Positions 1 through 38,044 of a stretch of DNA of 64,000 bases are shown here, piece after piece. This DNA comes from Mustelus asterias. Its lineage: Eukaryota. The notes beneath the pieces are model-generated. The model ran no database searches, was not told where the DNA came from, and saw nothing but the letters and a program-made list of their open reading frames with translations. Every line of letters begins with the position of its first letter. The first letter of the stretch is position 1. The DNA lies in contig NC_135803.1 in assembly GCF_964213995.1 (NCBI RefSeq), positions 92,628,001-92,692,000 on the forward strand. Direction: 5' to 3'. A program made the translations under genes and the position numbers.

Positions 1-360
1 GACTAATAAATCAATAAAAACTTTAAAAAGTATTTGGGAACGAACAAACAGGGAAACACAATGCCGCACAAGGTGTAGGGTAAGGATTGCATCAGGACGC
101 AAGATTACACCAGTGTAAATGTTTGAACGAATGGAGGTCGGTGCATTGCTGTAAACAAAATAGACGCATGTCTTTCAACAACTTGGACGCATATTGTTTG
201 TTTGATGTTATGATATTATGATGGTCAAAGTCTGATGAGTGTGACTCCAGCCTGCCTACTATAACACGTGGGTGGAACATGAGGAGATTCCCTCCCAGAC
301 TATATCCGGAGACACTCCCAAGACTTTGAAGTAGTGGCAGTGTTAACTCAGAATCAATGA

Positions 361-740
361 GGGCGATTTTCTGGCTGTGTTGTGCCCGGCGCAAATCGCA
401 CGGGGGCCATGCAGGATTAGAAAATCATGGAGGATGGGACTAGTGCATTAAAGCGCTGCTGAAAATCCGCCTTAATATTCTCCCAGCCCCTGTATCCGGG
501 CGTAATCTGGTTCCTGCCCAACGAGGGCAGGAGCCAGATTAGCATATTTAAATATTAGTTCAACATGACTATTCATACAAGATGATTTTTAAATTTATTA
601 CTTTCCCGTTAGAGAATTTAAATATTAATTTAAATATGCATTTCAATTTTGAGCCGGATTCTTCCTGCTCCCGGGATTCTCTGACCCTCGGGCGCAGTGG
701 GAACCCGGCACGAATTACTACTAGTCTCCAGGAACAGAGA
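361..740. mobile_element. Partial non-autonomous DNA transposon (PIF/Harbinger-like MITE)
   Basis: Begins gggcgattttc, resembling the GGGTGGAATTTT terminus at 37229. CpG-retaining body with internal hairpins (aatctggttcctgccc..gggcaggagccagatt). Right end not found. Confidence 0.4.
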
Positions 741-1396
741 CCAACAAGCCACAGTGTTAGGACATGTGACCTTATCTCTCCGCAAGATCTTCAACAAAAA
801 ATGTTTATCCAGTGGAATTCCGCTTGATCTTCAGGACTGCTAATACCTCTGCCATTATGGGATAAAAGGACTGTTTGAGACGCCATTGTCTTCGTAGGGT
901 CTCTGACTCAGCTGGAAGGTCTTGTCTATGAAATCGAAATGACCTTTGTGTAGCTCCCTTTGAAGTTGTGCTGTGCAATCCCCAGGTGGTCTGTTAGTTG
1001 CTCTACAGAAATAACAAGATGTGGCATTTCCGACACTGCAATGTGGCTTCTTTTGTTTTGGTGAGTCACAGACACTGACAGACATAGGGTCAGCCTAGAA
1101 CATACAGTGATTGGTTCTGTTCCATCACATCACATTCCTAAATCTTGAAAATAACCAGGGTGCCAAAATCAAATTGAAACCTAATTTTAACAAAATATTG
1201 CAAAGCTGAGTAAGGAGAATTTTATAGCAGGAACATTGCTTAAACGTGTAGGCTTAGTCAGAGGTTCTGCAACATGATTTTTTAATTTATTACTTTCCCG
1301 TTAAAGCATACTTTGACCCTGATTCCAACAAAATATTTTACTATAGCCGGAAGAGCTGTCCAGTTTTTAATGTTAAAAGAGTTGGCTTTGTTGCCC

Positions 1397-1656
1397 TGAT
1401 GTGGAGATGCCGGCGTTGGACTGGGGTAAACACAGTCAAGGTCTCACAACACCAGGTTAAAGTCCAACAGGTTTATTTGGTAGCAAAATCCACTAGTTTT
1501 CGGAGCGCTGCTCCTTCGCCAGATAAGTGGGAGTTATGCCCTGTTTGTGAACAGAACTCCCACTTACCTGACGAAGGAGCAGCGCTCAGAAAGCTAGTGG
1601 GTTTTGCTACCAAATAAACCTGTTGGACTTTAACCTGGTGTTGTGAGACTTCTTAC
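1397..1656. mobile_element. Fold-back Penelope-like element, family A, short copy with hammerhead motif in each arm
   Basis: Both arms match the termini of the 2-kb PLE at 61890-63900. Flanked by ctttgttgccctg (1386-1398) / ctttgttgtcctg (1656-1668). Confidence 0.9.
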
Positions 1657-1689
1657 TTTGTTGTCCTGGCCAATGCTCTGGTCAGAAGA

Positions 1690-2640
1690 AGATTGCAGAC
1701 AGATATAGATAGGTTGAGTGAGTGGGCAAAAATCTGGCAGATGAAGTATAATGTGAGAAAATGTGAACTTTGGGAGGAAGAATAAAAAAGCAGAGTATTA
1801 CTTATATGGAGAACAACTGCAGAATTCTGAGGTAGAGGGGAATCTGGGTGTTCTAGTGCATGAATCACAAAAAGTTAGTATCATAGAATCATAAAACCCA
1901 TACAGTGCAGAAGGAGGCCATTCGGCCCATCGAGTCTGCACCGACCACAATCCCATCCAGGCCCTATTCCCATAACCCCACACATTTACCCTGCTAATCC
2001 CCCTGACACTAGGGTCAATTTAGCATAGCCAATCAACCTAACCCGCACATCTTTGGACTGTGTGCAGCAAGTAATTAAAAAGGCTAATGCAATGCTGTCC
2101 TTTATGACCTGAGGAATTGAAAGTAAGAGTAAGGATGTTATGTTTCAGTGAGACCACATCTTGAATATTGTGTGCTGTTTTAGTCTCCTTATTTAAGGAA
2201 GAATGTAAATTGATACCTGAAGTGAGTGGGTTGTCTTATGAGGATAGGTTGAAGAGGCTGGGCTTGTTTCGATTAGAGTTTAGAAGAGTGAGGGATGACT
2301 TGATTGAAGTATATAAGATCCTGAATGGTTTTTGACAAGATGAACATGGAAAGGATATTTCCGCTTGTGGGTGAGTCCAGAAGAAGAGGACACTTTAAAA
2401 AAAATTAAGTGACAGCAATGAGGAGAATTGTTTCTCAGTGGGTTGTGTGACTTTGAAACTCTGCCTGAGAAGGCAGTGGTGGTGGGGTCATTAAATATTT
2501 GTTAGGAAAGGGAATCACAGGTTATTGGGAGTAGATAGGAATGCAGAACTCGAAAGGTAAACAGGTCAGCCATGATATCGAATGGCAGAGCAGGCTCGAG
2601 GGACCAACTAGCCTACTACTGCCCCAACTTTGTATTCTTG
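1690..2640 (+). mobile_element. Degenerate CR1/HER1 LINE 3' fragment, interrupted by a SINE
   Basis: Recognisable ORF2 3' motifs (gatatagataggttgagtgagtgggc, tatgaggataggttg, tttagaagagtgaggg) with many stops. Confidence 0.8.
1880..2062 (-). mobile_element. HE1-type V-SINE, 3' half
   Basis: Reverse complement of the CR1-derived tail (gactcgatgggccgaatggcctccttctgcactgta..ctatga) and the end of the V-domain. Confidence 0.9.
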
Positions 2641-3139
2641 TATGGTCCTGAGGCGGTGTGTGCAGTCTGACAAGGGCAGAGTTCTTTACCAATGGCTTTT
2701 CTGCACTAACGATGCTCACATTGTTTTCTCTTCACGCTCGGCTGCTCTTGTGACTCCATTATCCACCTTTCTATCCCTTGAACATGCCTCTTTGTCTCTA
2801 CTTGTGTCTTGGTCTAAGTGCTGGAGTTTGGTTATTATGTCTCCATTGGGCCACTTCCTTATTACCTTCTCTACCAGCTAATGGAAACAAACAGAAATGA
2901 TCTTTGTGGGAAGAAATAAAGGCATGCTTTATATTTTACATTCATGGGAAATTTTGACAAACAGTTGTAGAAGTGGCCTTTTTATTTATCCTTGCATTAA
3001 TGTGCAATGTAACCATAAAATGGCAACATTTTGGGTGAAGAAAGTTTTGATGAAAGAACCATTTTATGATAATACTTTGTGATTCAGAGTATCGCCCTAA
3101 TGTGCAAACTAGCTTTTTTTAAAATTCATAACTTCTCAA

Positions 3140-3157
3140 CTTAAATTTTGTTTCTAG
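3140..3157 (+). promoter_or_regulatory. Putative 3' splice acceptor for the ZBED-like coding exon
   Basis: Pyrimidine-rich cttaaattttgtttctAG|gca, 123 nt upstream of the ATG. A short uORF (ATG ATG TCT TTC TGA, 3212-3226) lies in the predicted 5'UTR. Confidence 0.6.
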
Positions 3158-3280
3158 GCAGCTGGGCTGTCTGGTCCAACCACAGCTGTAACTGGATTCC
3201 CTACCTGTGCGATGATGTCTTTCTGATCCTCTTGTGTGAAGCAGCCCAGAAAGAAGACACTGAGTTGCACATTAAAGGTA

Positions 3281-5254
3281 ATGGAAGGTGACAGTGACAT
3301 TGTACATTGTGGATCTTCATTCATCAAAACGGAAAGGCCTCAACTTGTGGAGAAGAACAATACCACGTCAGAAGTGTGGAGATACTTTGGCTTCCAGCCT
3401 GGTAGTGATGGTAGACCAGAAAACATTGAAACCCCAGTCTGCAAGATCTGTTTCCGTGTCATTCCAGCAAAGGCCTCAAACACGAGCAACCTTTATGCAC
3501 ATCTGAAATCTCAGCACCCTCATATTTATATAGAGGTGAAAGGCAAACCCAACCAGGCATCAACCATCCCAGCTTCATCTGGAGAGCCAAGCCGAGAGCA
3601 GAACAGCACCATGCGGGAGATCTTTCAGCGAAAAGATAAATTTGATTCCAAGCCCAGGGAGCACAGAGAGCTGACCAAAGCAGTGACATACTACGTCACC
3701 AAGGATAGGATTCCTCTGAGTACCATTTCCAAACCTGGCTTTCAGCACCTCTTGAACAAGTTCAACCCGAGGTATGAGCTGCCAAGCAAGAACTACTTTT
3801 CCAGAGTAGCAATTCCATCGCTTTATGCAGACGTTCGCAAGGTTGTTGAGAAAGAATTAAAGAGCGGTGATTGTTTTGCTGCAACTGTTGAAACATGGAC
3901 ATGTCGGAGCAATGAAATGTTCCTGACCTTTGGGGTTCAGTATGTGGACAGTGATTGGGTTCTCAAAAACCATTGCCTGCAGACTCAGTATCTGCCAGAT
4001 GAACACTCTGGTCAGAGTCTAAAGTGTGCCCTCCAAGATGTGCTGGAGGAGTGGGGACTGGACCCAACCAACCTTGTAGCCATCACTACTGACAATGGAC
4101 CTGCTATTAAACTTGCCTGTGAGCTGTTGGGCTGGAAAAGAATGAGCTGTTTCAGCCAGAATCTGCAATGTTCTCTCCAAAAGGGTCTTGAGGACTCTCG
4201 CATTGAACGAATCATTCAGCTGTGCCGTCAAATATTTTCTCAATTTTCACGAAGCTGGAGGAGGAAGCGGGATTTCTCTATAGCTCAGAGTCAGAAAGGC
4301 CTTCCAAGGAATTCACTGAAAGCAGATATTAACAACCACTGGGGGACCACTTTGGATATGTTGGAAAGGTTTTTTGAGCAGCAGGATGCTGTCAGAACTG
4401 TATTAGCTCATGACCATAAGATGTGTCGCCTTGTTCCAACGTGGCAGGACATTGATGTTCTTGAGTCAGTTATAAGTGTTTTGCGTCCTTTCCGTGAAAT
4501 GTCCGAAGCCCTGTCTTATGAAAAATTCATTTCCATTTCAGCAATAAACCCTCTTATAAAACATATATGCAACAATCTTGCAAGAGAAGAACAGGAGGAG
4601 TTAACTCTTAGTTTTCTAATGAGAATGAGAATCAAACGAGAGCTTGAAATGCGATATGGAGACCCAGACTTGGTCCATTTTCTGGAGAAAGTTACATTCA
4701 TTGATCCTCGGTTTGGTCCCACTTGCATAGACAATCTGGAAAATGTCCTGCAGCAAATTAAAGGAGAGGTACTTGCTGGAAACGTAGCTGAAGAATCATC
4801 ATTATTTCAAATTGACTTTGATGGATCAACCGTTTCTCCACTGAGCTCATGCAGCTGGTATGATCGAGATAGCCCAGGACCAAGTCAACCAAAGAAGGCC
4901 AAGCATGGAGGGGGACTTGCAAAGGTTTTTGGAAAGCAGAGTGGAGATGGAGCTGCAGACAAAATGGTGACGACTTCAGTTTCACTGCAAGAACAGCTTG
5001 ACCGAGAGTTGGATTTTTATTTCAAGGAGCCTAAGCTCTCCCTAGAGAGCTGTCCTCTTCAGTGGTGGAAAGCAACGCAGAATTGTCTGCCTTTGTTGGC
5101 AAAGCTAGCCAAAAAGTATCTCTGCATTTCTGCAATGAATGTTAATTCAGAAAGAGCGTTCAGCAATAGTAGTTTTGTACTTACCGAGTATCGAAGCAGC
5201 GTGAAACCCAAACATATGGACCAGCTGGTGTTCCTAGCTGAAAATCTCCCATGA
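3281..5254 (+). CDS. BED zinc-finger / hAT (Ac-family) transposase-derived protein, ZBED1-like, 657 aa; probably a domesticated host gene
   Basis: Uninterrupted ORF. BED finger SEVWRYFG..CKIC..NTSNLYAHLKSQH, hAT core (ITTDNG, PTWQDIDVLESV, FIDPRF), basic PKKAK, and C-terminal hATC dimerisation domain PLQWWK..LAKKYLCI..SERAFS..QLVFLAENL. The first ATG (3281) is in strong Kozak context gtaATGg; the ORF-track start at 3236 is a GTG. Confidence 0.9.
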   Translation: MEGDSDIVHCGSSFIKTERPQLVEKNNTTSEVWRYFGFQPGSDGRPENIETPVCKICFRVIPAKASNTSNLYAHLKSQHPHIYIEVKGKPNQASTIPASSGEPSREQNSTMREIFQRKDKFDSKPREHRELTKAVTYYVTKDRIPLSTISKPGFQHLLNKFNPRYELPSKNYFSRVAIPSLYADVRKVVEKELKSGDCFAATVETWTCRSNEMFLTFGVQYVDSDWVLKNHCLQTQYLPDEHSGQSLKCALQDVLEEWGLDPTNLVAITTDNGPAIKLACELLGWKRMSCFSQNLQCSLQKGLEDSRIERIIQLCRQIFSQFSRSWRRKRDFSIAQSQKGLPRNSLKADINNHWGTTLDMLERFFEQQDAVRTVLAHDHKMCRLVPTWQDIDVLESVISVLRPFREMSEALSYEKFISISAINPLIKHICNNLAREEQEELTLSFLMRMRIKRELEMRYGDPDLVHFLEKVTFIDPRFGPTCIDNLENVLQQIKGEVLAGNVAEESSLFQIDFDGSTVSPLSSCSWYDRDSPGPSQPKKAKHGGGLAKVFGKQSGDGAADKMVTTSVSLQEQLDRELDFYFKEPKLSLESCPLQWWKATQNCLPLLAKLAKKYLCISAMNVNSERAFSNSSFVLTEYRSSVKPKHMDQLVFLAENLP

Positions 5255-6228
5255 GGAAAGGCTGTTGAGATCTGTTTTAAAATTATAGAGCAGAACTGTG
5301 GCAAAAAGAATATGTTTTAAAGATCATTGAAAAATTAACTTTTTCTTGACCACCTTCAGGGTAGGTTTGAAAATGGTAGAGTGTAAGGTGGTGAACATGG
5401 GGTTGAACAGGAGTGAATCCATTTTGTCCTATCTACTTGTACAGTGGCTTGTTTGCTATTTCATGGTTCACCATGATCCATATAACTGAAATGTTCTTGC
5501 TGCTCTAGTTAGCAGGAGCTGCTTGCCCTTTCTTATCTTTCGGCCCCCTCCCTCCAGCTCAAGATTGATATCTCGTGTTTCTGTATTCTGCTTCATTAAG
5601 AACTGACAAAAGCTGCCAAGCTGAGATGTGAGCGACAAGCACCCCTGAGATATAACTAGCAGCCTCTGGTTTGGACATGCACATTGACCTGCTTGAACCA
5701 TCAGGTTGGCTCCAAGTCATAGCATCTCTGTTTTTATTCAGCTGGCCACCCAGTACATCAATCACACTGATAGAAACAAAAGTTGGCTTTTTTAAATAAT
5801 CTGCTATGTTTGCCCTTTCTGTCAATGCCTTGTGATCTGATCTGATGCATGCTCAAGTGGAAGTTCTATCAGTGTTTACAGGAATTAATCTGTGAAGTAA
5901 TTCCAGTTAATAATTTCAGTTTATGGGGAAGTGCACTTTGACAGTGCATCAGTACTACTGTATCAGGATTGGAGAACAGGCTATTTGGGGAGTTAGTACT
6001 GAATCGGTATCCCTACGAACCAAATAGATGCTTTGAACATGTTTGATACTGTAATTTAGCACTGCTTCAGCCATTAGAGACTTTCTATAGGCCATATGAT
6101 TGAGTAGGTGGAAGATGGGTGCTGGAGTATTTACATTTTTTCACACATGTTTGTGCATAAGTGTAATTGTCTGTATTTCTTGAAATGCCAACATAATGTA
6201 CATAACGTAAAAATTTATAATGGAATTC

Positions 6229-6320
6229 ATTAAAGTAAATCATTTATACAAACATTTATAATGGGAAAACAGTATGTAAACATTTCAGCTCATGGTTTGT
6301 TGATGAATCACACAAATAAA
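6229..6320 (+). terminator. Candidate polyadenylation signals ending a ~1 kb 3'UTR of the ZBED-like gene
   Basis: ATTAAA at 6229-6234 and AATAAA at 6315-6320, in an AT-rich stretch with no recognisable repeats after the stop codon. Confidence 0.4.
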
Positions 6321-6679
6321 AAAAGCATGTAATTTTTATCAGTAACTGAAATTTCTAATGTCCAAAATGTTTTAAAACATTTAAATGTTACTTTTTCACT
6401 GCTTAATTATTTAAATAAGATTATTTAAATTCATCAATTGAACTGTTTCTTGTGTCTTTTAGTACATTAGCATTTTCCTTGAAAACCTGAAAGTTAAAAC
6501 CTTAGGCTTGAATCTGATAGTTTGGCCTAAAGCAGTCAGGTGAAGGCAGATCCTTCACATAGGGCACAGGCAGTGTGTGTAGTTTCCTTGGATGCTTAAG
6601 TAACATTTAAGCTATTTAACTGAAATATATGGTCATCAACTACTTTGTTTGCATCAATGAGATGAATGTTGGTTCAGTC

Positions 6680-6862
6680 ACTGGGAGAACTACCCTATAT
6701 TTGAATAAGGCCATGGGATATCTTGCATCCACCAGAAACACCTGCCAGTGTCTCATCCAACATACAGCATTCGCTCAGTATTATGTTGGTTATGTGCTGA
6801 TGCCTGACTGGGGCTTGAACCACAACATGTTCACTCAGCAGTGAAACTACCACTGAGTCAAG
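6680..6862 (-). mobile_element. Old DeuSINE-like fragment
   Basis: Reverse complement resembles the Deu-domain segment (ggatgcaagatatcccatggcc..ttcaaa..gttctccc) also seen at 59490-59540. Confidence 0.45.
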
Positions 6863-7999
6863 TAATTAATCATATTGAAATTTTAATGCTGGCTATCTTG
6901 GACTCAGCCTCAGCAAACCTCTCCTTCAATTTGCAGTATACATTTTCTTTAGCCCGATATCTAGATAAATAATGGAGAGACCCAAGGACCACAACACACT
7001 ATTGCTGCAAACACCAGCAAATGGAATGTTTCAAATCCTGCATGTGATTCTCTTTAAAAGGTGCATTGATGATACTTTCTATAATCACATCACTCCTTCT
7101 CTAAGCAGGCTTAGTTTACTTCAACGAGCAGCTATTTGAAAGGTTAGGTCTGAGGTTGGTTTGAGTTATTTTATATCCCATCTGATTTTACTCTGCAGTG
7201 ATTACCAGAATATTCTCTGCACACAGTAATTTCATAAAGGATTATTGTTTTACTGACTCACATAATTGCCTCCACGCTATCCACTGGTTTTCTAACACCA
7301 AAGTGGGAATTGATTTCAGGGGTTGAGAGTGCCCAGACATATTTTGATCCTGAGAGATCCTTGTGAACTAGAATCAACAAGAGCGATCTTCCTGCACCCA
7401 CATACAACTTGGTCAATCAGAATTCCAATATCTGTAATTTGGATACCGTCATTTGATTTGCTTGAGTTTTCTGATGATTTTGCCTAATAACGGATTATAT
7501 TTATGCATGTCACTTCACATTGTCAAGATCTTGTTTATGACGGGAATGATTGTGAAATACTGAATGTGTTCAATGTGTTCCCCTCCTTGGGATTGTCATG
7601 GTCTGATTAATCGATTGGGTCATTTTCCTTATTGTTGTTGGCATCCCATGCTTACAAAAGCTGGAAGACTGATAATTTAGTGAAGAATATTGACACTGCC
7701 AAAGGCTCAGGTGTGTCTGGAATTTCCTTTTGGCCTGTAACTGAATTGAGAATGCTGTGTGATAGTCAGTTTTACACGTTAAAATATGTTTTTGTGCTCA
7801 CCTCAGATTGTACCAAAGGAAAAAGAGCCCTTGTAAATAGGGATGCTGGGGGAACTTTAACATTCTGCAGTGCCTGGAGTGGGGAGGGGTAAGAGAGGAC
7901 TAGAAGTCTAGGTTTCCCCTGCCTGTGGAGGTTTAATTCTACAGTGTGATTTTTCATCATTGATAGGTTGCTTACCAAGATGCTAGGACCACTGCTTTT

Positions 8000-9210
8000 T
8001 TTTCAATATATAATGACATGCATCTTGGAATATTGAGTAGAATTTGCCAATGATACCAGACTTGGAGGAGTGGCAAAGAGTGAGGATGATAGGAAGTGCC
8101 TGCAACATGACATGGATAGGCTAGCAGAATGGGCAGACAGGAATTTAATACAGAAACGAGTGAGGTGATGCATTTCGGCAGAAGCAATGTGAGAAGTCGT
8201 GGACTGAATGGCAGAACTCTGATGAATGTGCAGGAACAGAGGAAGCTGAGGGCGCATGTTCTTTGTAGGCGGCAGTACACATTGAGAGAGTGATTAGCAA
8301 AGCATATGTGATCATGGGCCCCATAAACAGAAACAATGAGTACAAAAGCAAGAAAATTATGATCACCCTATATAAAGCTCTGGTTAGGGCGCAACCACAC
8401 TTTATATCGGCACCACAATTTCGGACGATGTGAAAATCCTTGAGAGGGTGCAGAGGAGATTTACCAGAGTGGTCCCAGAGGTCTGGGGGGTGGTGGGGGG
8501 GGATTGGTTACCAGATTAGATTGGAAAGGCTGGTGTTGTTCTCCTGGGAACAAAGAAGATGGAGGGGAGATTTGATAGAGGCTGCCTCACAGCACCAGTG
8601 ACCCAGGTTCAATTCTGGCCTGATTGGATGACTGTATGGAGTTTGCACGTTCCCACGTGGATTTCCTCCGGGTGCTCTGGTTTCCTCCCATAGTCCAAAG
8701 ATGTGCGGGTTAGGTTGATTGGCCATGCTAAATTGCCCCTAAGTGTCAGGGGAATTAGCAGGGTTAATACGTGGGGTCGCGGGGATAAGGCCTGGGTGGG
8801 ATTGTTGTCAGTGCAGACTCAATGGGCCGAATGGCCTCTTCCTGCGCTGTAGATTCTATGTGTACAAGATAATTACAGGTTAGGATAAGCTTGACAAGGA
8901 AAATTTCTTCCCATTAACTGATGGCACAAGGACTTGGGGGTCACAGATTTAATGTTTCGGGCAAGACGTGGGGGGGAATGTGAAGAAGAACATTTTAAAC
9001 AGTGAGTGATCATGACCTAGAACTTACTTCCTATGAGGGTGCTGGAAGTGGTGATGATCAACAATTTCAAAGGGAAATTGGACAAGCATTTGATGGAAAT
9101 TAATTTGAAGGGCTGTGGAGACCAAGTGTGGGAGGAGGTCTGTCTAGATTACTTCACAGGAAGCTGACATGGACTCAGTGGGCCGAGTGGCTTCCTTGTG
9201 TGCTGTAAAT
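8000..9210 (+). mobile_element. Degenerate CR1 LINE 3' region with nested SINE
   Basis: aatttgccaatgataccagacttggagg (KFADDTKLGG-like), ttgagagggtgcagaggagatttaccag, and a 3' tail gggccgagtggcttccttgtgtgctgta. Confidence 0.8.
8581..8860 (+). mobile_element. HE1-type V-SINE
   Basis: V-domain tttcctccgggtgctctggtttcctcccatagtccaaagatgtgcgggttagg plus CR1 tail. Confidence 0.9.
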
Positions 9211-10067
9211 GACTCTGACTTGATGGCAGTTTGACAGGACTGTCTTCAGACAGGCAGGATACACTCCAGAGAAGATTGGATTGCGAGCAGGATCCAATCG
9301 CTGAAACTACCTGGGGTGGGAGCAGGGTGGAGCTGTTTTATCCCAGAGGGATTGATGGCAGGGGAGCTTGTGGATCCAGGCAGAGGCACTGCTGTTCTTC
9401 ACAGGTCAGCAGCAGTACCCCATTATCTCACTGCTGATTCCACGATTCCTGAGGCCCAGAACATCTAGTTTCTCCAGTTAAACTGCAGAGTAGGTGACAG
9501 CCTCATTAGCAGTTTAGAAATTCTGGCCCACCACCTGGAATGGATTTGGCAGCCCATCTTGTGTCTCGCAGGCAGCAAGTCCTGCAAGTCAACATACTTC
9601 CTGACAGCCTTCCAATTTTTGCCTATTCGAACCTTTGAAGTTCCAACTTTGGCCTGTTGTGCAATCCCACTGCAACCCCACCTTCCCATTACTTTGGTTG
9701 ATTTTACATTCTGCCTCAGCATTGTCTGTCAGTGGTTGTGGATCTTCCAGCTGTCTTTGATCTATGCTCTGGTGTTCCCTGTCTAAACTCCTCTTTGCCT
9801 TGTAAAAGTCTGTCTGAGCAAGCTGTCGACAGTTTTTCTACCTTGGGGTGAGGGTGGGTGGGGAGATTTTTTGGGACTGGCTGGCAGCAGAAAGGCTGCA
9901 TTTAATGCCCATTTCTAAATCCCTGAAAAAGTGATGGTGATTCCTCTAAACCTCTGCAACCCCTGAGGTTGTGGTGTTTTTACAACAGTTTTAGGCAGAG
10001 ATTTCTACGGCATTGATCTAAAAACGACGGAAGAGTAATGTTGATGTGTAGCCACGTCAGTGAAAAG

Positions 10068-10822
10068 TAACAGCAATATACTGTGCAGACGCTAGAAAGT
10101 CTGAAATATTAACAAATGTTGGAAAAACTCAGCAGGTGTGGCAGCATCTGTGGAGAGAGAAACAGTTAACATTTCAAGTCCAATATGATTTTTCTGTAGA
10201 GCTCTTTTGAAACAAGGAATTCAGTTCTGAAGAAGTCATATTGGACTTGAAACTTTAACTCTTTTTTTCTCTCCACAGATGCTTCCAGACCTACTAAGTT
10301 TTGTTAATTGGATCCAAGCCAGTTGGTGTAGCCGAAACCAAGATACCGAGCTTTTCCTCATTGAGAGAATTCATTGAATTGTTCAGTCTCCCACTCAACC
10401 CAGTGTCCCAGCTATCCCCTGTTTATACAGCTGAAAACAACCAGTAAATGAGAAAAAATACAGGGGTGACAGGCCCTGGTGGATCATCCCCTATTTATAC
10501 AATTTTAAATAAAACAAAAATATCAATAAATTAAACAAAAATGACAGGGGTGATGGTCCCTAGTGGGGAAGAACGTCAAAAAGAAACTCAATTAATTCAA
10601 ATTAAAATGTCATTCCAGGGGTGATGACGCCACTGTGGTGTCCACTGGTCATGGAAGGCCTGAAACGTGCCTTATTCCCTATTTATACATACTCAAAGAC
10701 AATTAATACCCCTCACCTGTTTCTTTTAGCCCTAACAATGTCATTGATATTAACAAACTGTAACAATGTCATTGACAAGAGATGAACAAGTTTTTCCAGC
10801 ACTTCCTGTTTTTATTTCCGGA
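10068..10822. mobile_element. Fold-back Penelope-like element, family B (hammerhead motif 10223-10260), split by a later insertion
   Basis: Inverted arms gcatctgtggagagagaaacagttaacatttcaagtccaatatga / tcatattggacttgaaactttaactc..ctctccacagatgc. The right arm resumes at 10791 (tttttccagcacttcctgtttttatttc). Confidence 0.75.
10303..10787 (-). mobile_element. Probable Tx1-clade LINE 3' fragment
   Basis: Minus strand 10597-10670 reads GTFQAFHDQWTPQWRHHPWNDILI*, resembling a frameshifted Tx1 ORF2 C-terminus (recognition from memory). Flanked by a 7-bp duplication aagtttt (10296-10302 / 10788-10794). Confidence 0.55.
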
Positions 10823-11214
10823 TGAAATAATTGTTGGAATACAGGTTGGAAATAATTGTGTGCCTCGGTATTCTCACTGGTAGAGATGATAGCACAGGGA
10901 GGACCTTTGTGAGCCCTTGTCCTGTAGATTATATATGCTGCAGCCATGGCGTACTGGTAGCAGCGGGGAGGAAGTGCCCTTTGAGAGCCATGGCAGGGTG
11001 CCAATCATGCGGATGATGATGTTGAGCTTCTTGAGTTGGTAGCAGCTGCACCCATCCAGGCGAATGGTAAACTTTCAATCATATTTCTAACTTGAGTCTT
11101 GTAGATGGAGATGCTGGACACAACACAGTGCATTTATGTAGCATGTTTAATGTAGTAAAATTGCCAAAAACAAGCTCACGAGGAGATCTTGGGACAGGTG
11201 ATTTTAAAAAATTA

Positions 11215-11585
11215 TTTCATGAGATATGAGTGCCTTTGGCAAGCCTAAGATTTGTTTCCCATCCCTAATTGCCTTGAACTGAGTGACTTACTGGACCATT
11301 TCAGAGGGCAGCTGAGAGTCAACCACATTGCTCTGGATCTAGAGTCACATGTAGGTCAGACCAGGTCAGGATGGCAGATTTCCTTTCCTAAAGGACATTA
11401 GTGAACCAGATGGGTTTTTATGACAATTGATGATTGTTTCATGGTCACCCTCATTAAGACCATCAATTCCAGATTTATTAATTGAACCTGAATTTTACCA
11501 GTAGCCATGGTGAGATGGATATGTACCATGCCCCCAGAGAATTAACCTAGGCCTTGGGATTCCTAGCCCAATGGCACCACCACGA
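11215..11585 (-). mobile_element. Second tRNA-derived SINE family (tail shared with the LINE 3' end at 23660-23905)
   Basis: Core gagtcaaccacattgctctggatctagagtcacatgtaggtcagacc is repeated, diverged, at 13440-13760. Its cccatccctaattgcc is the reverse complement of ggcaattagggataggc at 23831. Confidence 0.7.
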
Positions 11586-11589
11586 CATC

Positions 11590-11960
11590 AAGGCCTCTTC
11601 CCTCTTGGTAAAGGAGATAGGTTTTAGGGAGCATCTTCCTGGCAGTGAGAAAGGCAGAGAGGTTAGGGAGGGAATTCCAGGGTTTTGGGCAGCATTAGCA
11701 CAAGCAACAATAGTGGCCTGATAACACTGCAGTTTGGAGTAAACATTGAGGAGGGTTGTAGGCCTGGAGGAAGTTACAGAGATAGGGAAAGGCAAGGCCC
11801 CGAGGACTGAAAACCAGAAGGAGAACTTTAAAAAATGTGCTGTTGCCCAATCAGGAGCCAACATAGGTCAGTGAGCACAGGGGTGGTGGGCGAGTGAAAC
11901 TTGGTGCGAGTTAGGATACAGGCAGCAGAGTTTATACGCTGGGAGGCCAAGAGAGCAAGA
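11590..11960 (-). mobile_element. L2-clade LINE 3' fragment
   Basis: ggtaaaggagataggttttagggagcatctt..gagagg..agggagggaattccag; homologous to 55310-55620 and 30810-31100. Confidence 0.65.
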
Positions 11961-11972
11961 TATTTAAGGGTT

Positions 11973-12768
11973 CATAGAGTCATAGATGTTTACAGCATGG
12001 AAACAGGCCCTTCGGCCCAACTTGTCCATGCCGTCCTTTTTTTTAAAAACCCCTAGGCTAGTCCCAATTGCCCGCATTTGGCCCATATCCCTCTACACCC
12101 ATCTTACCCATGTAACTGTCTAAATGTTTTTTAAAAGTCAAAATTGTACCTGCCTCTACTACTACCTCTGGCAGCTTGTTCCAGACACTCACCACCCTCT
12201 GTGTGAAAAAATTGCCCCACTGGACACTTTTGTATCTCTCCCCTCTCACCTTAAACCTATGCCCTCTAGATTTAGACTCCCCTACCTTTGGAAAAAGATA
12301 CTGACTATCTAGCTGATCTGTGCCCCTCATTATTTTATAGACCTCTATAAGATCACACTCAGCCTTCTACGTTCCAGAGAAAAAAGTCCCAGTCCATCCA
12401 GACTCTCATAACTCAAATCATCAAGTCCCGGTAGCATCCTCGTAAATCTCTTCTGCACTCTTTCTAGTTTAATAATATCCTTTCTATAATAGGGTGACCA
12501 GAATTGCACACGTTCCAAGTGTGGCCTTACCAATGTCTTGTACAACTTCAACGAGACGTCCCAACTCCTGTATTCAATGTTCTGACCAATGAAACCAAAG
12601 CATGCTGAATGCCTTCTTCACCACTCTGTCCACCTGTGACTCCACTTTCAAGGAGCTATGAACCTGTACCCCTAGATCTCTTTGTTCTGTAACTCTCCCC
12701 AACGCCCTACCATTAACTGAGTAAGTCCTGCCCTGGTTCAATCTACCAAAATGCATCACCTCGCATTT
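11973..12768 (-). mobile_element. CR1/HER1 LINE, 5'-truncated, frameshifted
   Basis: ORF pieces LYKTLVRPHLE..QFWSPYY..LERVQKRFTRMLPG and SRGHRFKV..FFTQRVV, plus the 3' tail. Confidence 0.95.
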
Positions 12769-13439
12769 AATGTGGTTAATGATTACTGAAAAGTCTGAAG
12801 TGTAACAATAACTGAGTTAAACCTCTGCCCCTGTCTCTAACCCCTTTGCCTCTGTCTTCAACAATGCTAGAACAATGCCAGTTTGGCTGGTAGATGTGAT
12901 GAGGATCCATTTTTAAGAAGTGATTTATTGTTCATCCTTGCCTGTTCGCTGTCTTTAAAGGTTCATGTTCTCATGGATTGAGGTCCAAATTACTGCCCAT
13001 ATTCCTTCTGTAATGTCAATTCCCTTTTGAGATTGGTCATTGTGTCTGGCTGGGTAATTGTTCAAACAGCCATTTCTCCTACAAGATTGTGATTAGTGAT
13101 AAGTTGCAGGGAAGTGCTTGATGCTGTGGCCTGGTTTGCAGACAGATTTACTTTGCTGTTCTATGCTTAACCAGGTCATTGCCTCATTAACGGTAGTAGG
13201 AACTCTGATTACCTCCAAGGCCAATTACTCATTTTGACCTCAGAAATATTGATCAGGTGCTCAGAATCACCAAAGACAGACAGTTGCGCTTTGCTGGGAG
13301 CAATTTGAACTTTGTATTTTCCAAATTGGGTTCACTGCAGCCGGCTGTTTTTATCAGTGTATTTTAAATGGAGGTGCCCTTGAAATTAGATGAAACTTTG
13401 GAAACCTTTTTTCCCACAATTTGTTCCCAATTTATTCTC

Positions 13440-13762
13440 CTGATGTTGGGTGCTGGAGACAAGGCTGAGCTTCTTGCCCATCCTGATTTATTGCTTGACT
13501 GAATGGCTAGTGAGGCCACCTCGGAGGTCATTAACACTTGTTACATAGTGTGGGACTGGAGTCACATGTAAGTCAAGGCAGTGACAGCTCCCTTTCCCTG
13601 AAGGATACCAATGAGCCGGTTAGATTTTTAATAACAACCCAGCAGCCTTTGTCCTCCTTTCCTATTGCTAGCCCATGAACTACTAGATTTATTCATTCAT
13701 TTTCACAAATTGCCATGGTGGGATTTGAATTCTCAACTCTGGGCTGCTAATCCTATGCCATA
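13440..13762 (-). mobile_element. Diverged copy of the second SINE family
   Basis: Collinear with 11215-11585 (ctggagtcacatgtaagtca.., gccatggtgggatttgaa). Confidence 0.65.
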
Positions 13763-14867
13763 ATAAAACAGTCTGTGACTTGTTAAAACGGGGCTAAAAA
13801 TATCTACTGAATTGCATACAAAATAACACAACTCCAGCTTTTGATCACCCTGATGAGCCTCGATAAACAGGAAGCCTGCTGTTGATCAGGAGTGTGTAAT
13901 AAGGTGAGATCCCCACAAATGCATTTTGAAACTGCCAGTGCAGGGTGACGTAAGCATGACTGCCAGGCAGCAGAATGTTCAGCAACATCTCCCAGTAATA
14001 GCTCATGGACCGAGGTCCTTCTTGCTGGTGTGCTTGTGCTTCCAGCCCTTTTCCTTTCCAGTTTCACGCCTTTACCTCCCCTATTAGGCAATCTGCTTTC
14101 TGGGCTGTCACTGGCACTCCTGCAATGTGCCTGGAAAACAAACTGGAATGTGCTTGACATTTTATTCAGAAAGAAAGCTTCACAACATCTCATGTAACTT
14201 CATTGCAGTGTTAATGTAAGCCTACTTGTGACACTAATAAATAACATTTTTGATCTGCTTGCCCAATAAAAAACTCTCAAATCTTATGAATCCATGGTGC
14301 TCTCATAAGCCACGTTTGAACAGAATATATTTAGATGTATAGTATATTTTTTAAGTGTTCCAGTGTATTTGGGACATTTCAAATTCTGCAGTGCCTTAAA
14401 ATAGAATAAGTGCTCATTGGTTCTTCCATCAGCTGGCCATGGTTTTTGGTACAGCACTGAATTACCATGCAAGGCCATTCCATGAGCGGGTGCTTCATTT
14501 CTGGTCCGAGGGATTGCTAATGCCAGCACTGTGATGCTTGAACTCCTCCAGTCATTTCCAAGCTGATTTCTCATTGTTATTAAGGTGTAGCCAACAAGAG
14601 AGAGATTAACGCAGATTTTTAAAAAATACTTGTAGGTGATAGATAAGTATTGCTTTTTGAGCGCCTGATGGTTTTGAATTCCATCAATATAGGTGGCCGG
14701 CTTTGCCCGCCCTCTGGGAGTAAAGATGCTGCTAAAAGGTGTGGAAAAAGCAAAGCGAGTTGCAAATTGTGTTTTTGGGGAGGTGTAAATGAAAGAGCTC
14801 CCACTGTGGTGGCAGCTTAGGGTGGAACCATCTGCACTACTGTATTGAGTCCAGGCTGGCCTCTAAT

Positions 14868-14971
14868 GCACATACAAACATGCGCATGTGCAAACACACA
14901 CACACGCACGTGCACACTCGCGCGCGCGCACACACACACAGGCATGCCCACATGCATGCATGCATACACAC
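14868..14971. repeat. Alternating purine-pyrimidine microsatellite (CA/CG/TGCA)
   Basis: cacacacacacgcacgtgcacactcgcgcgcgcgcacacacacac..catgcatgcatgcatacacac. Confidence 0.9.
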
Positions 14972-15177
14972 CCTCACCCCCCACTCTGCATTGCTGGTGG
15001 TAGCTTCTTCTAACTGCTTTGGATCAGAGCTCTCACTTGTACCTCATTAGCAGTGAGGCTCATGCTGTGAAGTTGCACTTTTGTTGTTATCCTAACTTGT
15101 GTGGAATATCAGTGTCTATAAACTGTAGTACTTAAGGGGCACTCACAGCTTATTTTTCACAACAATTCAAATTATTC

Positions 15178-16187
15178 CATAGAACCATAGAATCCCTGCA
15201 GTGCAGAAGGAAGCCATTTGGCCCAGCGAGTCTGCACCAACTCTCCGAAAGAGCATCTTACGGAGGGACCTAGGTGTGCAAGTCCACAAATCCTTGAAGG
15301 TGGCAACACAGGTGGAGAAGGTGGTGAAGAAGGCATATGGTATGCTTGCCTTTATAGGACGGGGTATAGAGTATAAAAGCTGGAGTCTGATGTTGCAGCT
15401 GTATAGAATGCTGGTTAGGCCACATTTGGAGTACTGCGTCCAGTTCTGGCCACTGCACTACCAGAAGGACGTGGAGGCGTTGGAGAGAGTGCAGAGAAGG
15501 TTTACCAGGATGTTGCCTGGTATGGAGGGTTTTAGCTATGAGGAGAGATTGGGTAAACTGGGGTTGTTCTCCCTGGAAAGACAGAGAATGAGGGGAGATC
15601 TAATAGAGGTGTACAAGATTATGAAGGGGATAGATAGGGTGAATGGTGGGAAGCTTTTTCCCAGATCAGAAGTGACGTTCACGAGGGGTCACAGGCTCAA
15701 GGTGAGAGGGGCGAAGTATAACTCAGATATTAGAGGGATGTTTTTTACACAGAGGGTGGTGGGGGCCTGGAATGCGCTGCCAAGTAGGGAGGTGGAGGCA
15801 GGCACGCTGACATCGTTTAAGACTTACCTGGATAGTCACATGAGCAGCCTGGGAATGGAGAGATACAAACGATTGGTCTAGTTGGACCAAGGAGCGGCAC
15901 AGGCTTGGAGGGCCGAAGGGCCTGTTTCCTGTGCTGTACTGTTCTTTGTTCTTTGTTCTTTACCTTGCCCCCCCATCGTCCTATCCCCATGACTCCACGC
16001 ACTTACCATGGCTAATCCATCTGACCTGCACGTCCTTGGACTGTGGTAGGAAACCGAAGCACCCAGAGGATACCCACGCAGACACGGGGAGAATGTGCAA
16101 ACTCCACAGAGAAAATCACTCAACGTCAGAATTGTTGGTCCCTGGCGCTGAGGCAGCAGTGCTAACCACTGTGCCATTGTGCTGCCC
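15178..16187 (-). mobile_element. HE1-type V-SINE split in two (15178-15260 and 15961-16187) by a CR1 insertion
   Basis: The SINE tail precedes the CR1 and the tRNA-like head follows it; the halves rejoin as gagcatctta|cc. Confidence 0.85.
15261..15960 (+). mobile_element. Young 5'-truncated CR1 LINE (ORF2 C-terminus open)
   Basis: RDLGVQVH..LVRPHLEYCVQFW..RGDLIEVYKIM..TRGHRLKV..FFTQRVV, followed by a (gttcttt)n tail. Confidence 0.95.
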
Positions 16188-16409
16188 TTAATTTTTCTTT
16201 AATTTTTCTTTAATTCTTTTATTCTGAATCTATTCCATTTAACACTGTGATCATGCCACCTGATACAATGGAACTGTCCTCAGTCTGAAGATGGGACTTT
16301 ACCACCACGTAGTCCTTCTGGAGACAATGAGCAGACACATCTGCATCAGGCAGTTTGGTGATAATGAAGTCAAGTCAATTTATCTTCTTGTTGGTTCTCT
16401 CTATTGCCA

Positions 16410-17645
16410 CAGGTCCATAGATAGATTGGGAGTAAGTGTGAGATCATGCACTTTAATAGGAATTAAAAGGCAGATTATTATCTAAAAGGAGAGAGACTGC
16501 AGGTGAGTGAAGTACAGAGGGATCTAGGTGTTCTAGTGCATGAATCGCGAAAAGCTATCAGGTCCAACAAGTAGCTAATGCAAATGGCATTTTGGCCTTT
16601 ATTGCAAAGGGGTTGGAGTTTAAAAACAGGGAGGTTTTGTTGCAATTGTACAGGGTGTTCATGAGGCCTCACCTGGAATATTGCATGCAGTTTTGGTCAC
16701 CTTGCTTAAAAAGGGATATAGTAACAATGGGCATAGTAACAAACATAGGGCAGCACGGTGGCAAGCATTGCTGCCTCACAGCACCGGGTTCAATTCCAGC
16801 CTTGGGTGCCTGTTTGTGTGGAGTTTGCATGTTCTCCCTGTGTCTGCATGAGTTTCCGCCTTGAGTCTCATGGCATCAAGTCAAACATGGCCATGGAAAC
16901 CTCCTGCTGATTACCACTTGGGGCGGCACAATGGTTAGCATTGCTGCCTCTGTGCCAGGTACCCAGGTTCGATTCCCGGCTTGGGTCACTGTCTGTGTGG
17001 AGTTTACACATTCTCCCCATGGTGGACTCTCCCATAGTCCAAAGATATGCAGTGAGGTGGATTGAACATGGTAAATTGTCCCTTAGTGACCAAAGATGTG
17101 TAGGTTAGATGGATTAGCCATAGTAAATGTGTGGGGTTACGGGGATAGGGTGTGGGAGAGGGCCTGGTAACGTACTCTGTCAGAGAATCGGTGCCGACTC
17201 GATGGGCTGAATGGCCTCCTTCTGCACTGTAGGGATTCTATGATTCTAACATTGAAGTCCAAAGGAGATTCGCCAGGCTAATTCCTGGGATGGGAGGGTT
17301 GTCCTCTCAAGAGAAATTAAATAGTCTGGACCTGTATTCTTTGCAGTTTAGAAGAGTGAGGGGTGACTTTATTCAAACATACAAGGTCCCGAGAGGGCTT
17401 GACAGGGTAGATGGTGACAAGATAAAGGGCCAGTCATTTAAAACTGAAGTGCATAGAAATTTCTTCTTGCAGAGAGTGGTGAATCTCTGGAATTCTCTGC
17501 GCCAAAGCTTGTTGGGGACTGACCATTGGTATTTAAAGTGGAGATGGATAAATATTTGAAAGATTAAGGAATAGAGGACGATGGGGAAATGGCACAGAAA
17601 GGGAATTGAGGCCAGCATAAATCAGCCATGGGGCAGGCTTGAAGG
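16410..17645 (+). mobile_element. Degenerate CR1 3' region containing a rearranged SINE
   Basis: AFIAKGLEFKNREVLLQLY..RPHLEYC and RRVRGDFIQTYK pieces lie either side of the SINE. Confidence 0.85.
16748..17247 (+). mobile_element. HE1-type V-SINE with a duplicated head and 61 bp of captured flank
   Basis: Two tRNA-like heads (16748 and 16920) separated by sequence that is the reverse complement of 18186-18246. Confidence 0.85.
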
Positions 17646-17860
17646 GCCTGGTGTTCTTGAGTGTTTTTGTCCAGTTTGGTAGACGTGTACTTCAGGACTC
17701 AGCAAGCTTGCTCAGTTGTGGTACTATAAGCCGATTTTGCTGATGGACATTGCAGACCCCAACCAGAGTACATTCTGTATCGTTGGCATCCTCAGTGCTT
17801 CTTCCAAATGCTGTTCAACATGAAGGAATACTGATACCCCAGCTGAGGGAGGGCAGTAAA

Positions 17861-18185
17861 ATCATAGAATCCTACAGTGCAGAAGGAGGCCATTCGGCCC
17901 ATCAAGTCTGCATTGACCACAATCCCACCCAGGCCCTATCCTCATAACCCCATGCATTTACCCTAGCTAGTCCCCCTGACACTAAGGGGCAATTTAACAT
18001 GGCCAATCCGCCTAACCCGCACATCTTTGGAGTGTGGGAGGAAACTGGAGCCCCCAGAGGAAACCCACACAGACACGGGGAGAATGTGCAAACTCCACAC
18101 AGACAGTGACCCAAGCCGGGAATCGAACCTGGGTACCTGGCACTGAGAGGCAGCAGTGTTAACCACTGTGCTACCGTGCCGCCCC
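17861..18185 (-). mobile_element. HE1-type V-SINE, full length
   Basis: Head ggggcggcacggtagcacagtggttaacac..ggttcgattccc (A/B boxes), V-domain and CR1 tail. Confidence 0.95.
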
Positions 18186-18515
18186 AAGTGGTAATCAGCA
18201 GGAGGCTTCCATGGCCATGTTTGACTTGATGCCATGAGACTCAAGGTCCAGAGTCGATGTTGCGGTCTCCCAGGGCAGCTCGCTCCCGTCTCGATATCAC
18301 TGTGTCACTACCTGTGGTGCATCTGTCCTGCTGGTGGGACAGGACATACCCAGGAATGGTGATGGAGGATTCTAAGGGAATTGGCTATATGGTTTCAGAT
18401 GACAGTGTCAGGCTGTTGCTTGTCTAGTCTATGGGGCAGGTCTCCCAATTTAGACACAAACCCTCAGAGGTTGGTGAGGAGGACTTTGCAGGGTCTGATT
18501 GGGCTGGTTGTGTAC
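18186..18515 (-). mobile_element. LINE APE-endonuclease fragment (CR1-group)
   Basis: Minus strand encodes ITIPGYVLSHQQDR, typical of the N-terminal endonuclease region. Confidence 0.6.
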
Positions 18516-18595
18516 TAGGGTGAGACACTCCTCCTCCTTCTCTCTTTGACAACTTAGCAGAAATCAGGAGCCTGCAATGTGAGGATTGGGATGAG

Positions 18596-18922
18596 AAATC
18601 ATAGAAACCCTACAGTGCAGAAGGAGGCCATTCGGCCCATCGAGTCTGCACCGACCACAATCCCACCCAGGCCCTACCCCCACATATTTACCCGCTAATC
18701 TACGTATCTCAGGACTCTAAGGGGCAATTTTTTAACCTAGCCAATCAACCTAACCCGCACATCTTTGGACTGTGGGAGGAAACCGGAGCACCCGGAGGAA
18801 ACCCACGCAGACACGAGGAGAATGTGCAAACTCCACACAGACAGTGACCCGAGCCGGGAATCGAACCCGGGACCCTGGAGCTGTGAAGCAGCAGTGCTAA
18901 CCACTGTGCTACCGTGCCGCCC
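18596..18922 (-). mobile_element. HE1-type V-SINE, full length, young
   Basis: CpG-rich head and V-domain nearly identical to 40336-40644. Confidence 0.95.
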
Positions 18923-19226
18923 CCTTCATCTCTCCTCTGTGTTATAATGTACAAATTCTCTGCAACAATGCAATATATTATAACATGCTAGTCCTTTGAG
19001 CACTGAATTTATTGCAGGGAAACTTGAGTTTAACTCCTTGACTTGATGTGACATTTCCTGTGATCCCAGCATGTTCACAATGATTTTCAGTTTACCTCAT
19101 GTTCGTGGTGGTGTGTCAGATGGTTAGACTTCACTTTTGTGAAGGTTCAGAATTAAAAAACATTTGATTGAAAAAAAGATTGGTACAAATTAATTTGGTG
19201 AATGACAAACTTGTGCAGCTTTATCT

Positions 19227-19507
19227 TCATAGAATCATAGAGTCCCTACAGTGCAGAAGGAGGCCATTCGGTCCATCGAGTCTGCACCGACTTATCCAGG
19301 CTTACCCTGTAACCCCATGTATTTACTCCACTAATCCACCAAACCTATATATCTTGGAGCAATTTAGCCGATCTACCTAACCCGCACATTCTTTGGACTG
19401 TGGGAGGAAACCCACGCAGACACAGGGAGAACGTGCAAACTCCACACAGTCACCCAGAGCTGGAATTGAACCCGGCTCCCTGTCATGGTGAGGTAGCAGT
19501 GCTAAGC
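19227..19507 (-). mobile_element. HE1-type V-SINE
   Basis: Tail, V-domain and head all recognisable. Confidence 0.9.
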
Positions 19508-19509
19508 AT

Positions 19510-20860: not shown

Positions 20861-21435
20861 ATTTATCATGTGGCGAATCATATTGCTGCTTGTCTTACTG
20901 CTGTGATACAGGGCTTGTTTTAATTTTCTGTTTGACTGTCCACCCCACTTTTCCAGCATTGACACTGAAAATTTGACAGGCGTCTTATATTGGCCAGAGA
21001 TCCTTTCTCATCAGGATGTAATCTCTAATTTTATTACATTTATTGAGATCTAGAATGACTGCTGGCATCTGTTTTCTTCTGAATTGTCACTAAATGTTGT
21101 GATCTGTATTGCATCAACATCTTACTATCTTTTAAAAGTGAAATCCATGGTGGGCATTAACTTTCTCATTGGTCTGAATGTCAGAGTGTATGTTTATCTC
21201 TCTGTTGCTGAAACATATCTGGTCACCCGGAGGGAGAGAAACAGCAGACCAGCAGCGGAGATAAGGCAGGTACAAACTACACATATTCCTGTAAGAAGCA
21301 AGAATGGGGCAGCCAAAGCGAGAGTTCTTGGGTGACAAAGGGACTGGAAGTTAAAATAAAATAGAAAAGGTAGGCTGAGGGCAAATGTCAAGTACAAAAT
21401 CGTGTCACAAAACAGGCAGAATGCAGACAGTGCAG
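20520..21435. repeat. 200-bp inverted duplication (20520-20720 / 21236-21435)
   Basis: Manual alignment gives 8 substitutions and 1 indel (~95% identity), with a 515-bp spacer. Confidence 0.95.
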
Positions 21436-21589
21436 GGGGGGAGACTGAAGACACCGATTTTAACACTGAATGCCTCAATTTGGATAAAATGCCCCCCTTT
21501 TTAAAGCAAGTCCTTCTCTCGGCTATATTAATCGTTGACCCATGTTAGGTGTTCCTGCGCCATACCTGTCGCAAAGGTGAGGGGCGACT

Positions 21590-29670: not shown

Positions 29671-29811
29671 CCCTCTATTTATAAATATTCCAATTTATCC
29701 ATTTAATATATTTTGTACATTGACTGCAGTTTAATGATCATGTACATGAGACCCCTAAATCTATTTGAACCTGACCTTTCATATAAAATTTGTTTCATGA
29801 GGATGACCTTT

Positions 29812-38041: not shown

Positions 38042-38044
38042 ACA

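Follow-up and report, generated by a model that had tools for sequence, protein, structure and literature searches.

Several transposases are known to have become host genes while nested in another gene, and the closest described parallels to the case treated here are ZBED1, ZBED6 and PGBD3. The case lies in a 64,000-nucleotide stretch of the genome of the shark Mustelus asterias (NC_135803.1, positions 92,628,001 to 92,692,000, forward strand; hereafter "the window"). Here, an intact, uninterrupted open reading frame (ORF) of 657 codons (P0001) derives from an Ac/hAT transposase. With reasonable confidence, the locus can be read as a single-copy hAT-derived gene that is housed in a TEX264 intron, joined by splicing to one of that gene's coding exons and conserved in cartilaginous fishes; its product is likely a catalytically dead, self-associating, DNA-binding regulator. 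Events of this class are, of course, well known; the finding extends a pattern rather than overturning one.

ZBED1 (hDREF/TRAMP) lies in intron 1 of DHRSX. Like the shark gene, it combines one BED finger, a full transposase body and a hATC domain with an altered active site and nesting in a host intron (PMC3606216), and it is listed as sharing its promoter and 5' exons with DHRSX (PMC2568002). The shark gene is unlike it in having a separate origin, in its 29% identity to shark ZBED1, in its host gene and contig, in being found in cartilaginous fishes only, and in the set of residues changed. ZBED6, in intron 1 of ZC3H11A, is likewise a single-copy domesticated hAT gene fixed in a host intron, with a near-invariant BED region, and is described as transcribed from its host's promoter (PMC2780926). 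ZBED6 is, however, placental-specific, has two BED domains and comes from an intron-retaining transcript, whereas the shark gene, with its single BED, is reached by splicing, as the terminal exon that follows a coding exon.

For the layout of the transcript, the parallel is PGBD3, a 3' terminal exon trap in intron 5 of CSB. There too, a transposase ORF flanked by a splice acceptor and a poly(A) signal forms an alternative final exon, to which an inner coding exon of a DNA-repair gene is spliced; production of the solitary PGBD3 transposase is attributed to a cryptic promoter that lies in CSB exon 5 (PMC2268245). PGBD3 is, however, a piggyBac and not a hAT transposase, and CSB-PGBD3 is an open in-frame fusion, whereas in the shark gene a stop stands between the two frames.

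Hermes and the active Ac-family transposases share domain order and fold with the shark protein. Unlike them, the shark ORF is single copy, has no terminal repeats that could be seen and is changed at three active-site positions. Domesticated Ac-family genes are also described in the ZBED4/6/X/C7ORF29 clade and in zebrafish "ZBEDX" (zgc:161969) (PMC9859435). Their listed loci are ALG12, ZC3H11A, LRRC61, CD96, AGGF1 and EIF4G2, not TEX264; their sequences were not knowingly in the trees below. More generally, ZBED2/3/4/6/X, C7ORF29 and ZBED5/7-9 were rejected as identities, TEX264 being absent from the loci in Table 1 of PMC3606216 and the shark gene having one BED only.

No published description of the gene was found, nor, among the papers listed, of a link between TEX264 and ZBED genes, in a search that left most subscription journals outside; supplementary tables of large screens may list the gene. 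The main text of PMC10027918 does not mention sharks. Beyond automatic labels, the gene is apparently undescribed. With it, the Ac family gains a domestication that is distinct from ZBED1 and lies at none of the loci listed for the named ZBED genes.

The exon and its host gene

Contigs from four runs (X1, X15, X16 and X17) cover the window from 3156 to about 6435, and in all four, cover is absent from the unique flanks at 2834-3000 and 6508-7500. The X15 contig begins with 27 loose letters that map once genome-wide, to an exon end (AG, followed by GT) 69.8 kb upstream. That exon has 222 nucleotides and phase 0 (G000:C3:92561174-92561395, where G000 is the shark genome). Pfam and PDB searches did not identify it; a protein search gave TEX264, of which it is coding exon 2. 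The contig is therefore joined across a 69.8-kb GT-AG intron, as expected of a spliced transcript from a domesticated hAT gene. Contigs of X1 and X17 have 27 loose letters at the same place and that of X16 has none, the letters themselves being seen for X15 only. The X15 contig starts 30 letters short of the point at which its sequence departs from TEX264 exon 3 or from the intron, as would fit a branch into an alternative continuation. The true 3' end of the exon lies beyond the reach of the contigs, and 6435 is a lower bound.

Downstream of the transposase exon, TEX264 continues with exon 3 at 165 kb (from G000:C3:92796953) and exon 4 at 233 kb. TEX264 is an autophagy receptor for the endoplasmic reticulum (ER-phagy) and a p97 cofactor, with a C-terminal SHP box and LC3-interacting region (LIR) (PMC7062751, PMC8465915); its GyrI-like domain spans residues 46-174. 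Past the junction, the TEX264 frame runs for 22 codons to a stop, and 18 codons (54 nucleotides) beyond it, still in that frame, comes the transposase ATG. Read from the TEX264 start, the joined transcript would give residues 1-161 of TEX264 and 22 more. As follows from the splice, each transcript that takes the exon would lose the end of the GyrI-like domain together with the LIR and SHP motifs.

Much of the exon had been foreseen from the letters of the window. The initial annotation saw an intact ORF behind a splice acceptor and proposed splicing into 3158; the AG at 3156-3157 is indeed used, and the X15 contig leads from it into TEX264 exon 2. The host gene lay outside its view, and with the host comes a problem of translation. 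The BED finger and dimerisation domain that it took to be kept are both recognised by Pfam, the latter as Dimer_Tnp_hAT at residues 576-656 (E 1e-18). Its 3' untranslated region (UTR) of about 1 kb without repeats stood only in part: most of the UTR is unique, but between 6207 and 6385 there are 17 weak, short matches to other parts of the genome, and the exon runs past AATAAA to at least 6435. It had seen no terminal inverted repeats (TIRs). Of the 66 inverted pairs between 2300 and 7200, taken without a shuffle comparison, none of the 25 longest is both near-perfect and placed around the exon, which left no element ends at which to look for target-site duplications.

The protein carries a BED finger (one only), a hAT transposase body and a hATC domain. 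An AlphaFold model from a 66-row alignment has a mean predicted local distance difference test score of 81, with disordered stretches at residues 1-18, 89-111 and 502-565. In a fold search with this model, the ten best matches are all Hermes structures (best E 8e-17).

Run X15, 99+% identical to the window, differs from it at 3280, 3811, 4518 and 6165. The difference at 4518 turns Y413 into S, the residue in 21 of 22 aligned rows; here, the window may hold a private allele or an assembly error.

Table 1. Coordinates in the window of the transposase-derived exon and its parts
Feature	Position	Strand	Details
Whole window, within coding intron 2 (235.6 kb) of TEX264	1..64000	+	flanking exons outside the window
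Splice acceptor, pyrimidine tract and AG (AG at 3156-3157)	3146..3157	+	joined to TEX264 coding exon 2 donor 69,762 nt upstream
Alternative terminal exon	3158..6435 (at least)	+	X15 contig 3156-6435, X17 3157-6431
TEX264-frame continuation, 22 codons then TGA (3224-3226)	3158..3226	+	same frame as transposase ATG in Mustelus asterias
hAT transposase-derived ORF P0001	3281..5254	+	657 aa; ATG with G at -3 and +4
psi-K-x-E SUMO-acceptor consensus, I15-K16-T17-E18	3323..3334	+	K16 and E18 invariant in 19/19 orthologous rows
BED zinc finger, C54 C57 H74 H79	3368..3520	+	Pfam zf-BED, aa 30-80, E 7e-8
First catalytic Asp changed to Glu (E204, GAA)	3890..3892	+	alignment to Hermes, orthologue rows
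Second catalytic Asp kept (D271, GAC)	4091..4093	+	invariant in 19/19
CxxH changed to CxxQ (C290, Q293; CAG at 4157)	4148..4159	+	alignment to Hermes, orthologue rows
RW changed to HW (H353, W354; CAC at 4337)	4337..4342	+	alignment to Hermes, orthologue rows
PKKAK, putative basic motif like a nuclear localisation signal, in disordered linker	4889..4903	+	sequence and structure model
hAT C-terminal dimerisation region: W595, W596, L606, catalytic Glu E624 (GAA, 5150-5152)	5006..5248	+	
3' UTR; AATAAA at 6315-6320	5255..6435	+	cover runs past AATAAA

Descent, conservation and the active site

A 1020-base DNA query finds one match in the 3.68-Gb genome, namely itself. A protein query gives three further intact ORFs, at 25-29% identity, a number that is a floor because the first look was stricter. 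Outside this genome, orthologues 83-94% identical are found in 18 named sharks, rays, skates and the chimaera Callorhinchus, with one sequence per named species. A protein search returns four clusters (23 sequences) at 82-92% identity and then drops to 45% or less. With the C-terminal 421 residues of the chimaera protein as the query, 79-84% is followed by 43% (among the best 7993 candidates), and an exhaustive search of 50% representatives shows the same gap. The closest sequence relatives outside the orthologues are Ac-family transposases at 39-45%. No bony-vertebrate orthologue appeared in two word-indexed searches, which also missed some chondrichthyans in which TEX264 was found; the 50%-cluster search would mask any such orthologue beneath its chimaera representative. 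Within the searches made, the gene appears limited to cartilaginous fishes. Databases label it "ZBED1" or "E3 SUMO-protein ligase ZBED1-like" in some species and a TEX264 isoform elsewhere.

The pairing with TEX264 is equally widespread. In all 12 species that list both, TEX264 and the transposase gene are on longest contigs of the same length. The accession numbers of the two proteins are adjacent in seven of seven species where both were seen, among them the chimaera. Records of three species label the two as isoforms X1 and X2 of one gene. Since the pairing includes the chimaera, the insertion likely predates the split between chimaeras and elasmobranchs. This split occurred about 400 million years ago, as against 43 million years for PGBD3.

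Two quick trees were made, one of 30 rows under LG+G4 and one of 53 rows under a mixture model. In both, the TEX264-nested proteins form one clade, apart from ZBED1, with a long stem and the chimaera branching first. The crown is short and in species order, and the clade is nested among intact transposases. Forcing it together with ZBED1 costs 115 log-likelihood units on the first tree (approximately unbiased (AU) test, p=2e-6), and orthology with ZBED1 was rejected. The shark has its own ZBED1 (P0091) on another contig (L003, G000:C10:114556999-114558894, minus strand), and the host of the gene described here is TEX264 rather than DHRSX. Against the BED structure of ZBED1 (PDB 2ct5), P0091 matches with E 9e-33 and the TEX264-nested protein with E 3e-7. 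In shark ZBED1, the first and second catalytic Asp are replaced by E and S and the Glu by Q, and CxxH is kept.

Here too, expectations existed. The initial annotation anticipated a single copy, a closer likeness to Ac-like transposases than to ZBED1, and a domestication within cartilaginous fishes, and it proposed synteny and phylogeny as checks. Each was borne out, and neither many TIR-bearing copies nor ZBED1 orthology, which it named as fatal, appeared. The best reading would be an independent domestication older than the shark-chimaera split.

Conservation was counted in 19 orthologous rows (P0070, P0071 and P0073, as broken, near-duplicate or alternative models, were left out). In the BED region (residues 21-85), 59 of 65 positions are invariant and 64 of 65 are identical to the chimaera; in the N-terminal dimer region, 60 of 80 are invariant. 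In each of 11 species pairs, conservation is higher for the transposase protein than for TEX264 (to chimaera, 83% vs 66%), and its lead holds against the folded N-terminal part of TEX264 alone. A gene that has changed less than its host is probably an important one in sharks and rays. At the level of nucleotides, 18 of the 31 substitutions listed between the window ORF and run X17 are synonymous, although only about 22% of sites are. This gives a pN/pS of about 0.2 (p=1e-5), far from the dN/dS near 1 that had been named as a refutation. In run X1, pieces dominated by the ORF differ by 3.9-4.6% and UTR pieces by about 9%, and the one ORF indel listed is of 3 nucleotides. This is the pattern of purifying selection expected of a domesticated gene.

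The active site behaves differently. In alignment to Hermes, E204 falls on T-I-D-L-W, D271 on T-D-R, Q293 on C-S-S-H, H353 on T-R-W and E624 on S-E-R, so the intact D-D-E, CxxH and RW of an active Ac/hAT transposon are not all present. Among the orthologous rows, the first Asp is E in 18 and K in the chimaera. The CxxH His is Q in 17 and R in two; the RW Arg is H, N, Q or K; the original His and Arg are lost in all 19. D271, W206 and W354 never vary, and E624 does so once, as D in a skate. By comparison, all eight motif residues (D-W-D-C-H-R-W-E) are kept in 12 of the 13 closest relatives and in 24 of the 32 relatives printed. The active-site changes are old, and the three columns concerned are now drifting.

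The initial annotation had read codons 3890, 4091, 4157, 4337 and 5150 correctly as E, D, Q, H and E. Its claim of a loss pattern proper to this gene fared less well: the residues are changed, but the three columns vary among the rows, and shark ZBED1 also has E at the first Asp. The close relative P0011 shows the same D-to-E change with all else intact. Because P0011 and shark ZBED1 share the E, D-to-E alone is neither unique nor proven lethal. Hermes H268 mutants are, at second hand, severely defective (PMC4763223), and in Kat1 changing DDE residues to Ala abolishes cleavage, while CxxH is needed for hairpin formation (PMC4763223). Together, the three changes would make transposition unlikely.

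Other hAT-derived genes were met along the way. L004 (G000:C21:1466241-1468049, plus strand; 702 codons) and L005 (G000:C24:60389782-60391575, minus strand; 674 codons) are intact BED-hAT ORFs with long branches, catalytic motifs altered by eye, and no relative above 31% among the proteins compared; they are probably further domesticated genes. In P0099, P0105, P0107 and P0108, all full-length relatives, several residues of the active site are likewise missing; these may have been domesticated independently out of this transposase group.

Translation and proposed function

A transposase ORF behind a stop, in an alternative last exon of a gene for DNA repair and ER-phagy, raises the question of how such ORFs are translated. 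Its start, MEGD, is kept in 20 of 22 aligned rows, and several accession numbers for an identical protein in many species suggest several 5' variants. We favor a stand-alone protein. The 657-residue chain would be made from the ATG at 3281. Ribosomes might re-initiate once past the stop at 3224; alternatively, the message might be a shorter one, starting within exon 2 or spliced to it, in which the TEX264 start codon is absent. The solitary PGBD3 transposase offers a precedent.

The history that this implies would run as follows. An Ac-family element would have landed in TEX264 intron 2 before chimaeras and elasmobranchs separated, lost its ends and become an alternative last exon under the host promoter. 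The active site has changed at three positions, which now vary, while the BED finger and the dimer domains are retained, as is the Hermes fold as a whole. The protein would dimerise, enter the nucleus, bind a short motif through its BED finger and be regulated at K16 by small ubiquitin-like modifier (SUMO), serving as a factor for transcription or chromatin, much like ZBED1 and ZBED6.

In this proposal, "catalytically dead" and "DNA-binding" are inferences from conservation and from analogy with ZBED1 and ZBED6. The psi-K-x-E motif is a SUMO-acceptor consensus. It occurs within the first 60 residues of only one of 32 non-orthologous relatives and is invariant in the orthologues; its gain followed domestication. 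In ZBED1, W590/W591/L601 are needed for self-association and nuclear entry (PMC7471704); W595/W596/L606 are their counterparts here. Together, the near-invariant BED, the dimer residues, the basic motif and psi-K-x-E would suit a SUMO-regulated, dimeric, sequence-specific DNA-binding factor.

Several points weigh against this interpretation. The junction of the window exon to TEX264 comes from one of four runs, none of them on record as RNA. The only junction seen brings an upstream TEX264 ORF of 183 codons, unfavorable for downstream initiation, and no transcript free of that ORF was observed among the contigs reaching the exon. In other species, the intron position is inferred from adjacency, not from DNA, and the pN/pS of about 0.2 is drawn from the 31 substitutions listed, out of a table with 135 further rows. 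The D-to-E change is, of course, conservative; with D271, W206, W354 and E624 retained, residual metal binding or nicking may persist. Further, the Kat1 mutants carry Ala, not Glu, making them an imperfect parallel for E204.

Alternatively, the gene may have been kept as a repressor of transposons, its dead transposase binding the subterminal repeats of related Ac elements or poisoning their oligomers. Hermes, after all, binds subterminal repeats through its BED domain (PMC10368747). The shark protein is conserved over its whole length, including the insertion and dimer domains, and shares the recognition-helix region NTSNLYxHL with its intact relatives. However, no intact close partner was found in the shark genome, where the other matches stand at 25-29% (a floor, given the stricter first look), and a BED near-invariant over some 400 million years suits fixed host targets better than a changing parasite. 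A repressor therefore seems unlikely.

A bolder idea, to which we likewise give little weight, is that selection in cartilaginous fishes acts on TEX264 as a two-output locus. The choice of splice would trade an ER-phagy and p97 receptor for a functionally bicistronic mRNA, the source of a truncated, membrane-anchored TEX264 and, through re-initiation or readthrough of the one stop, of a SUMO-linked, DNA-binding protein derived from the transposase. An old transposase would in this way be drawn into DNA-protein crosslink repair or into tethering chromatin to the nuclear envelope.

Slightly less credible is a SUMO E3 ligase, or a partner in the SUMO pathway, co-expressed with TEX264 for SUMO-dependent repair of DNA-protein crosslinks. 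The invariant psi-K-x-E gained after domestication would fit, as would the SUMOylation of Mi2-alpha by ZBED1 (PMC7471704), the binding of SUMO1-modified TOP1 by TEX264 (PMC7062751) and the ligase label in databases. That label, however, is transferred by similarity and sits also on intact fish transposases. The protein is of separate origin from ZBED1 and only 29% identical to it, and the nesting in TEX264 may be an accident of insertion.

A membrane-anchored fusion of TEX264(1-161) to the transposase, on the model of CSB-PGBD3, would require readthrough of the TGA at 3224 or a different splice, and must be judged very improbable. TEX264 exon 2 and the ORF do share a frame here, with a single stop between, and the N-termini in skate and basking shark records are extended, with the frame open, by 23-54 residues. 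The basking shark extension, however, fits the leader in another frame (SSPERRH; none of 500 shuffles scored as high), so the frame relation is seemingly not conserved. Skate extensions gave no match to the leader above chance. P0285 and P0286 are chimaera TEX264 models with unusual tails; when they were set against the three frames of the leader, the best scores were reached by 8, 18 and 10 of 500 shuffles, in 15 comparisons. None of the 23 listed members of the four clusters carries the TEX264 N-terminus, the MEGD start is conserved, and TGA-TCC is not the known vertebrate readthrough context. The likeness to CSB-PGBD3 lies in the splicing of an internal coding exon of the host to an alternative 3' terminal exon, not in an open in-frame fusion.

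Nor does a nuclease, residual or regulated, for a programmed DNA event such as that of yeast Kat1 find much room. The invariant D271, W206 and W354, the nearly invariant E624 and the still acidic E at the first position speak for it; against it stand the chimaera's Lys at that position and the loss of His293 and Arg353 in every row, CxxH being needed for hairpin formation (PMC4763223). Finally, a young or mobile transposon copy, or the ZBED1 orthologue that database names in some species suggest, is practically ruled out by the single copy without a flanking inverted pair, conservation to chimaera, the place of ZBED1 on C10, the BED scores (E 9e-33 vs 3e-7) and the AU test.

Other features of the TEX264 locus

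TEX264 has four coding exons spread over about 400 kb (G000:C3:92463892-92865090), separated by introns of 97, 236 and 68 kb. A scan for CpG over 264 kb gave no clear promoter; the stretch at 92458-92460 kb is retroelement-like by eye. Intron 1 has two GC- and CpG-rich parts, of about 27 kb and about 5 kb (G000:C3:92515001-92542500 and 92556001-92561000; L012-L017). Of this GC-rich sequence, the part that was read (L026:1-880) is a 23-bp tandem array whose end, just upstream of exon 2, is a stretch like a short interspersed element (SINE).

Within the window, the initial annotation had described most other transposon ORFs as decayed or truncated. Six retroelement-like ORFs were scanned. Partial reverse transcriptase ORFs at 24362-25612 and 60444-60869 match Pfam RVT_1, each only part of an element; the other four (15342, 55548, 60108 and 62775) had no Pfam match. 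Tandem repeats at 21545-22159 and 41390-42127 give rise to spurious, repetitive ORFs on the minus strand.

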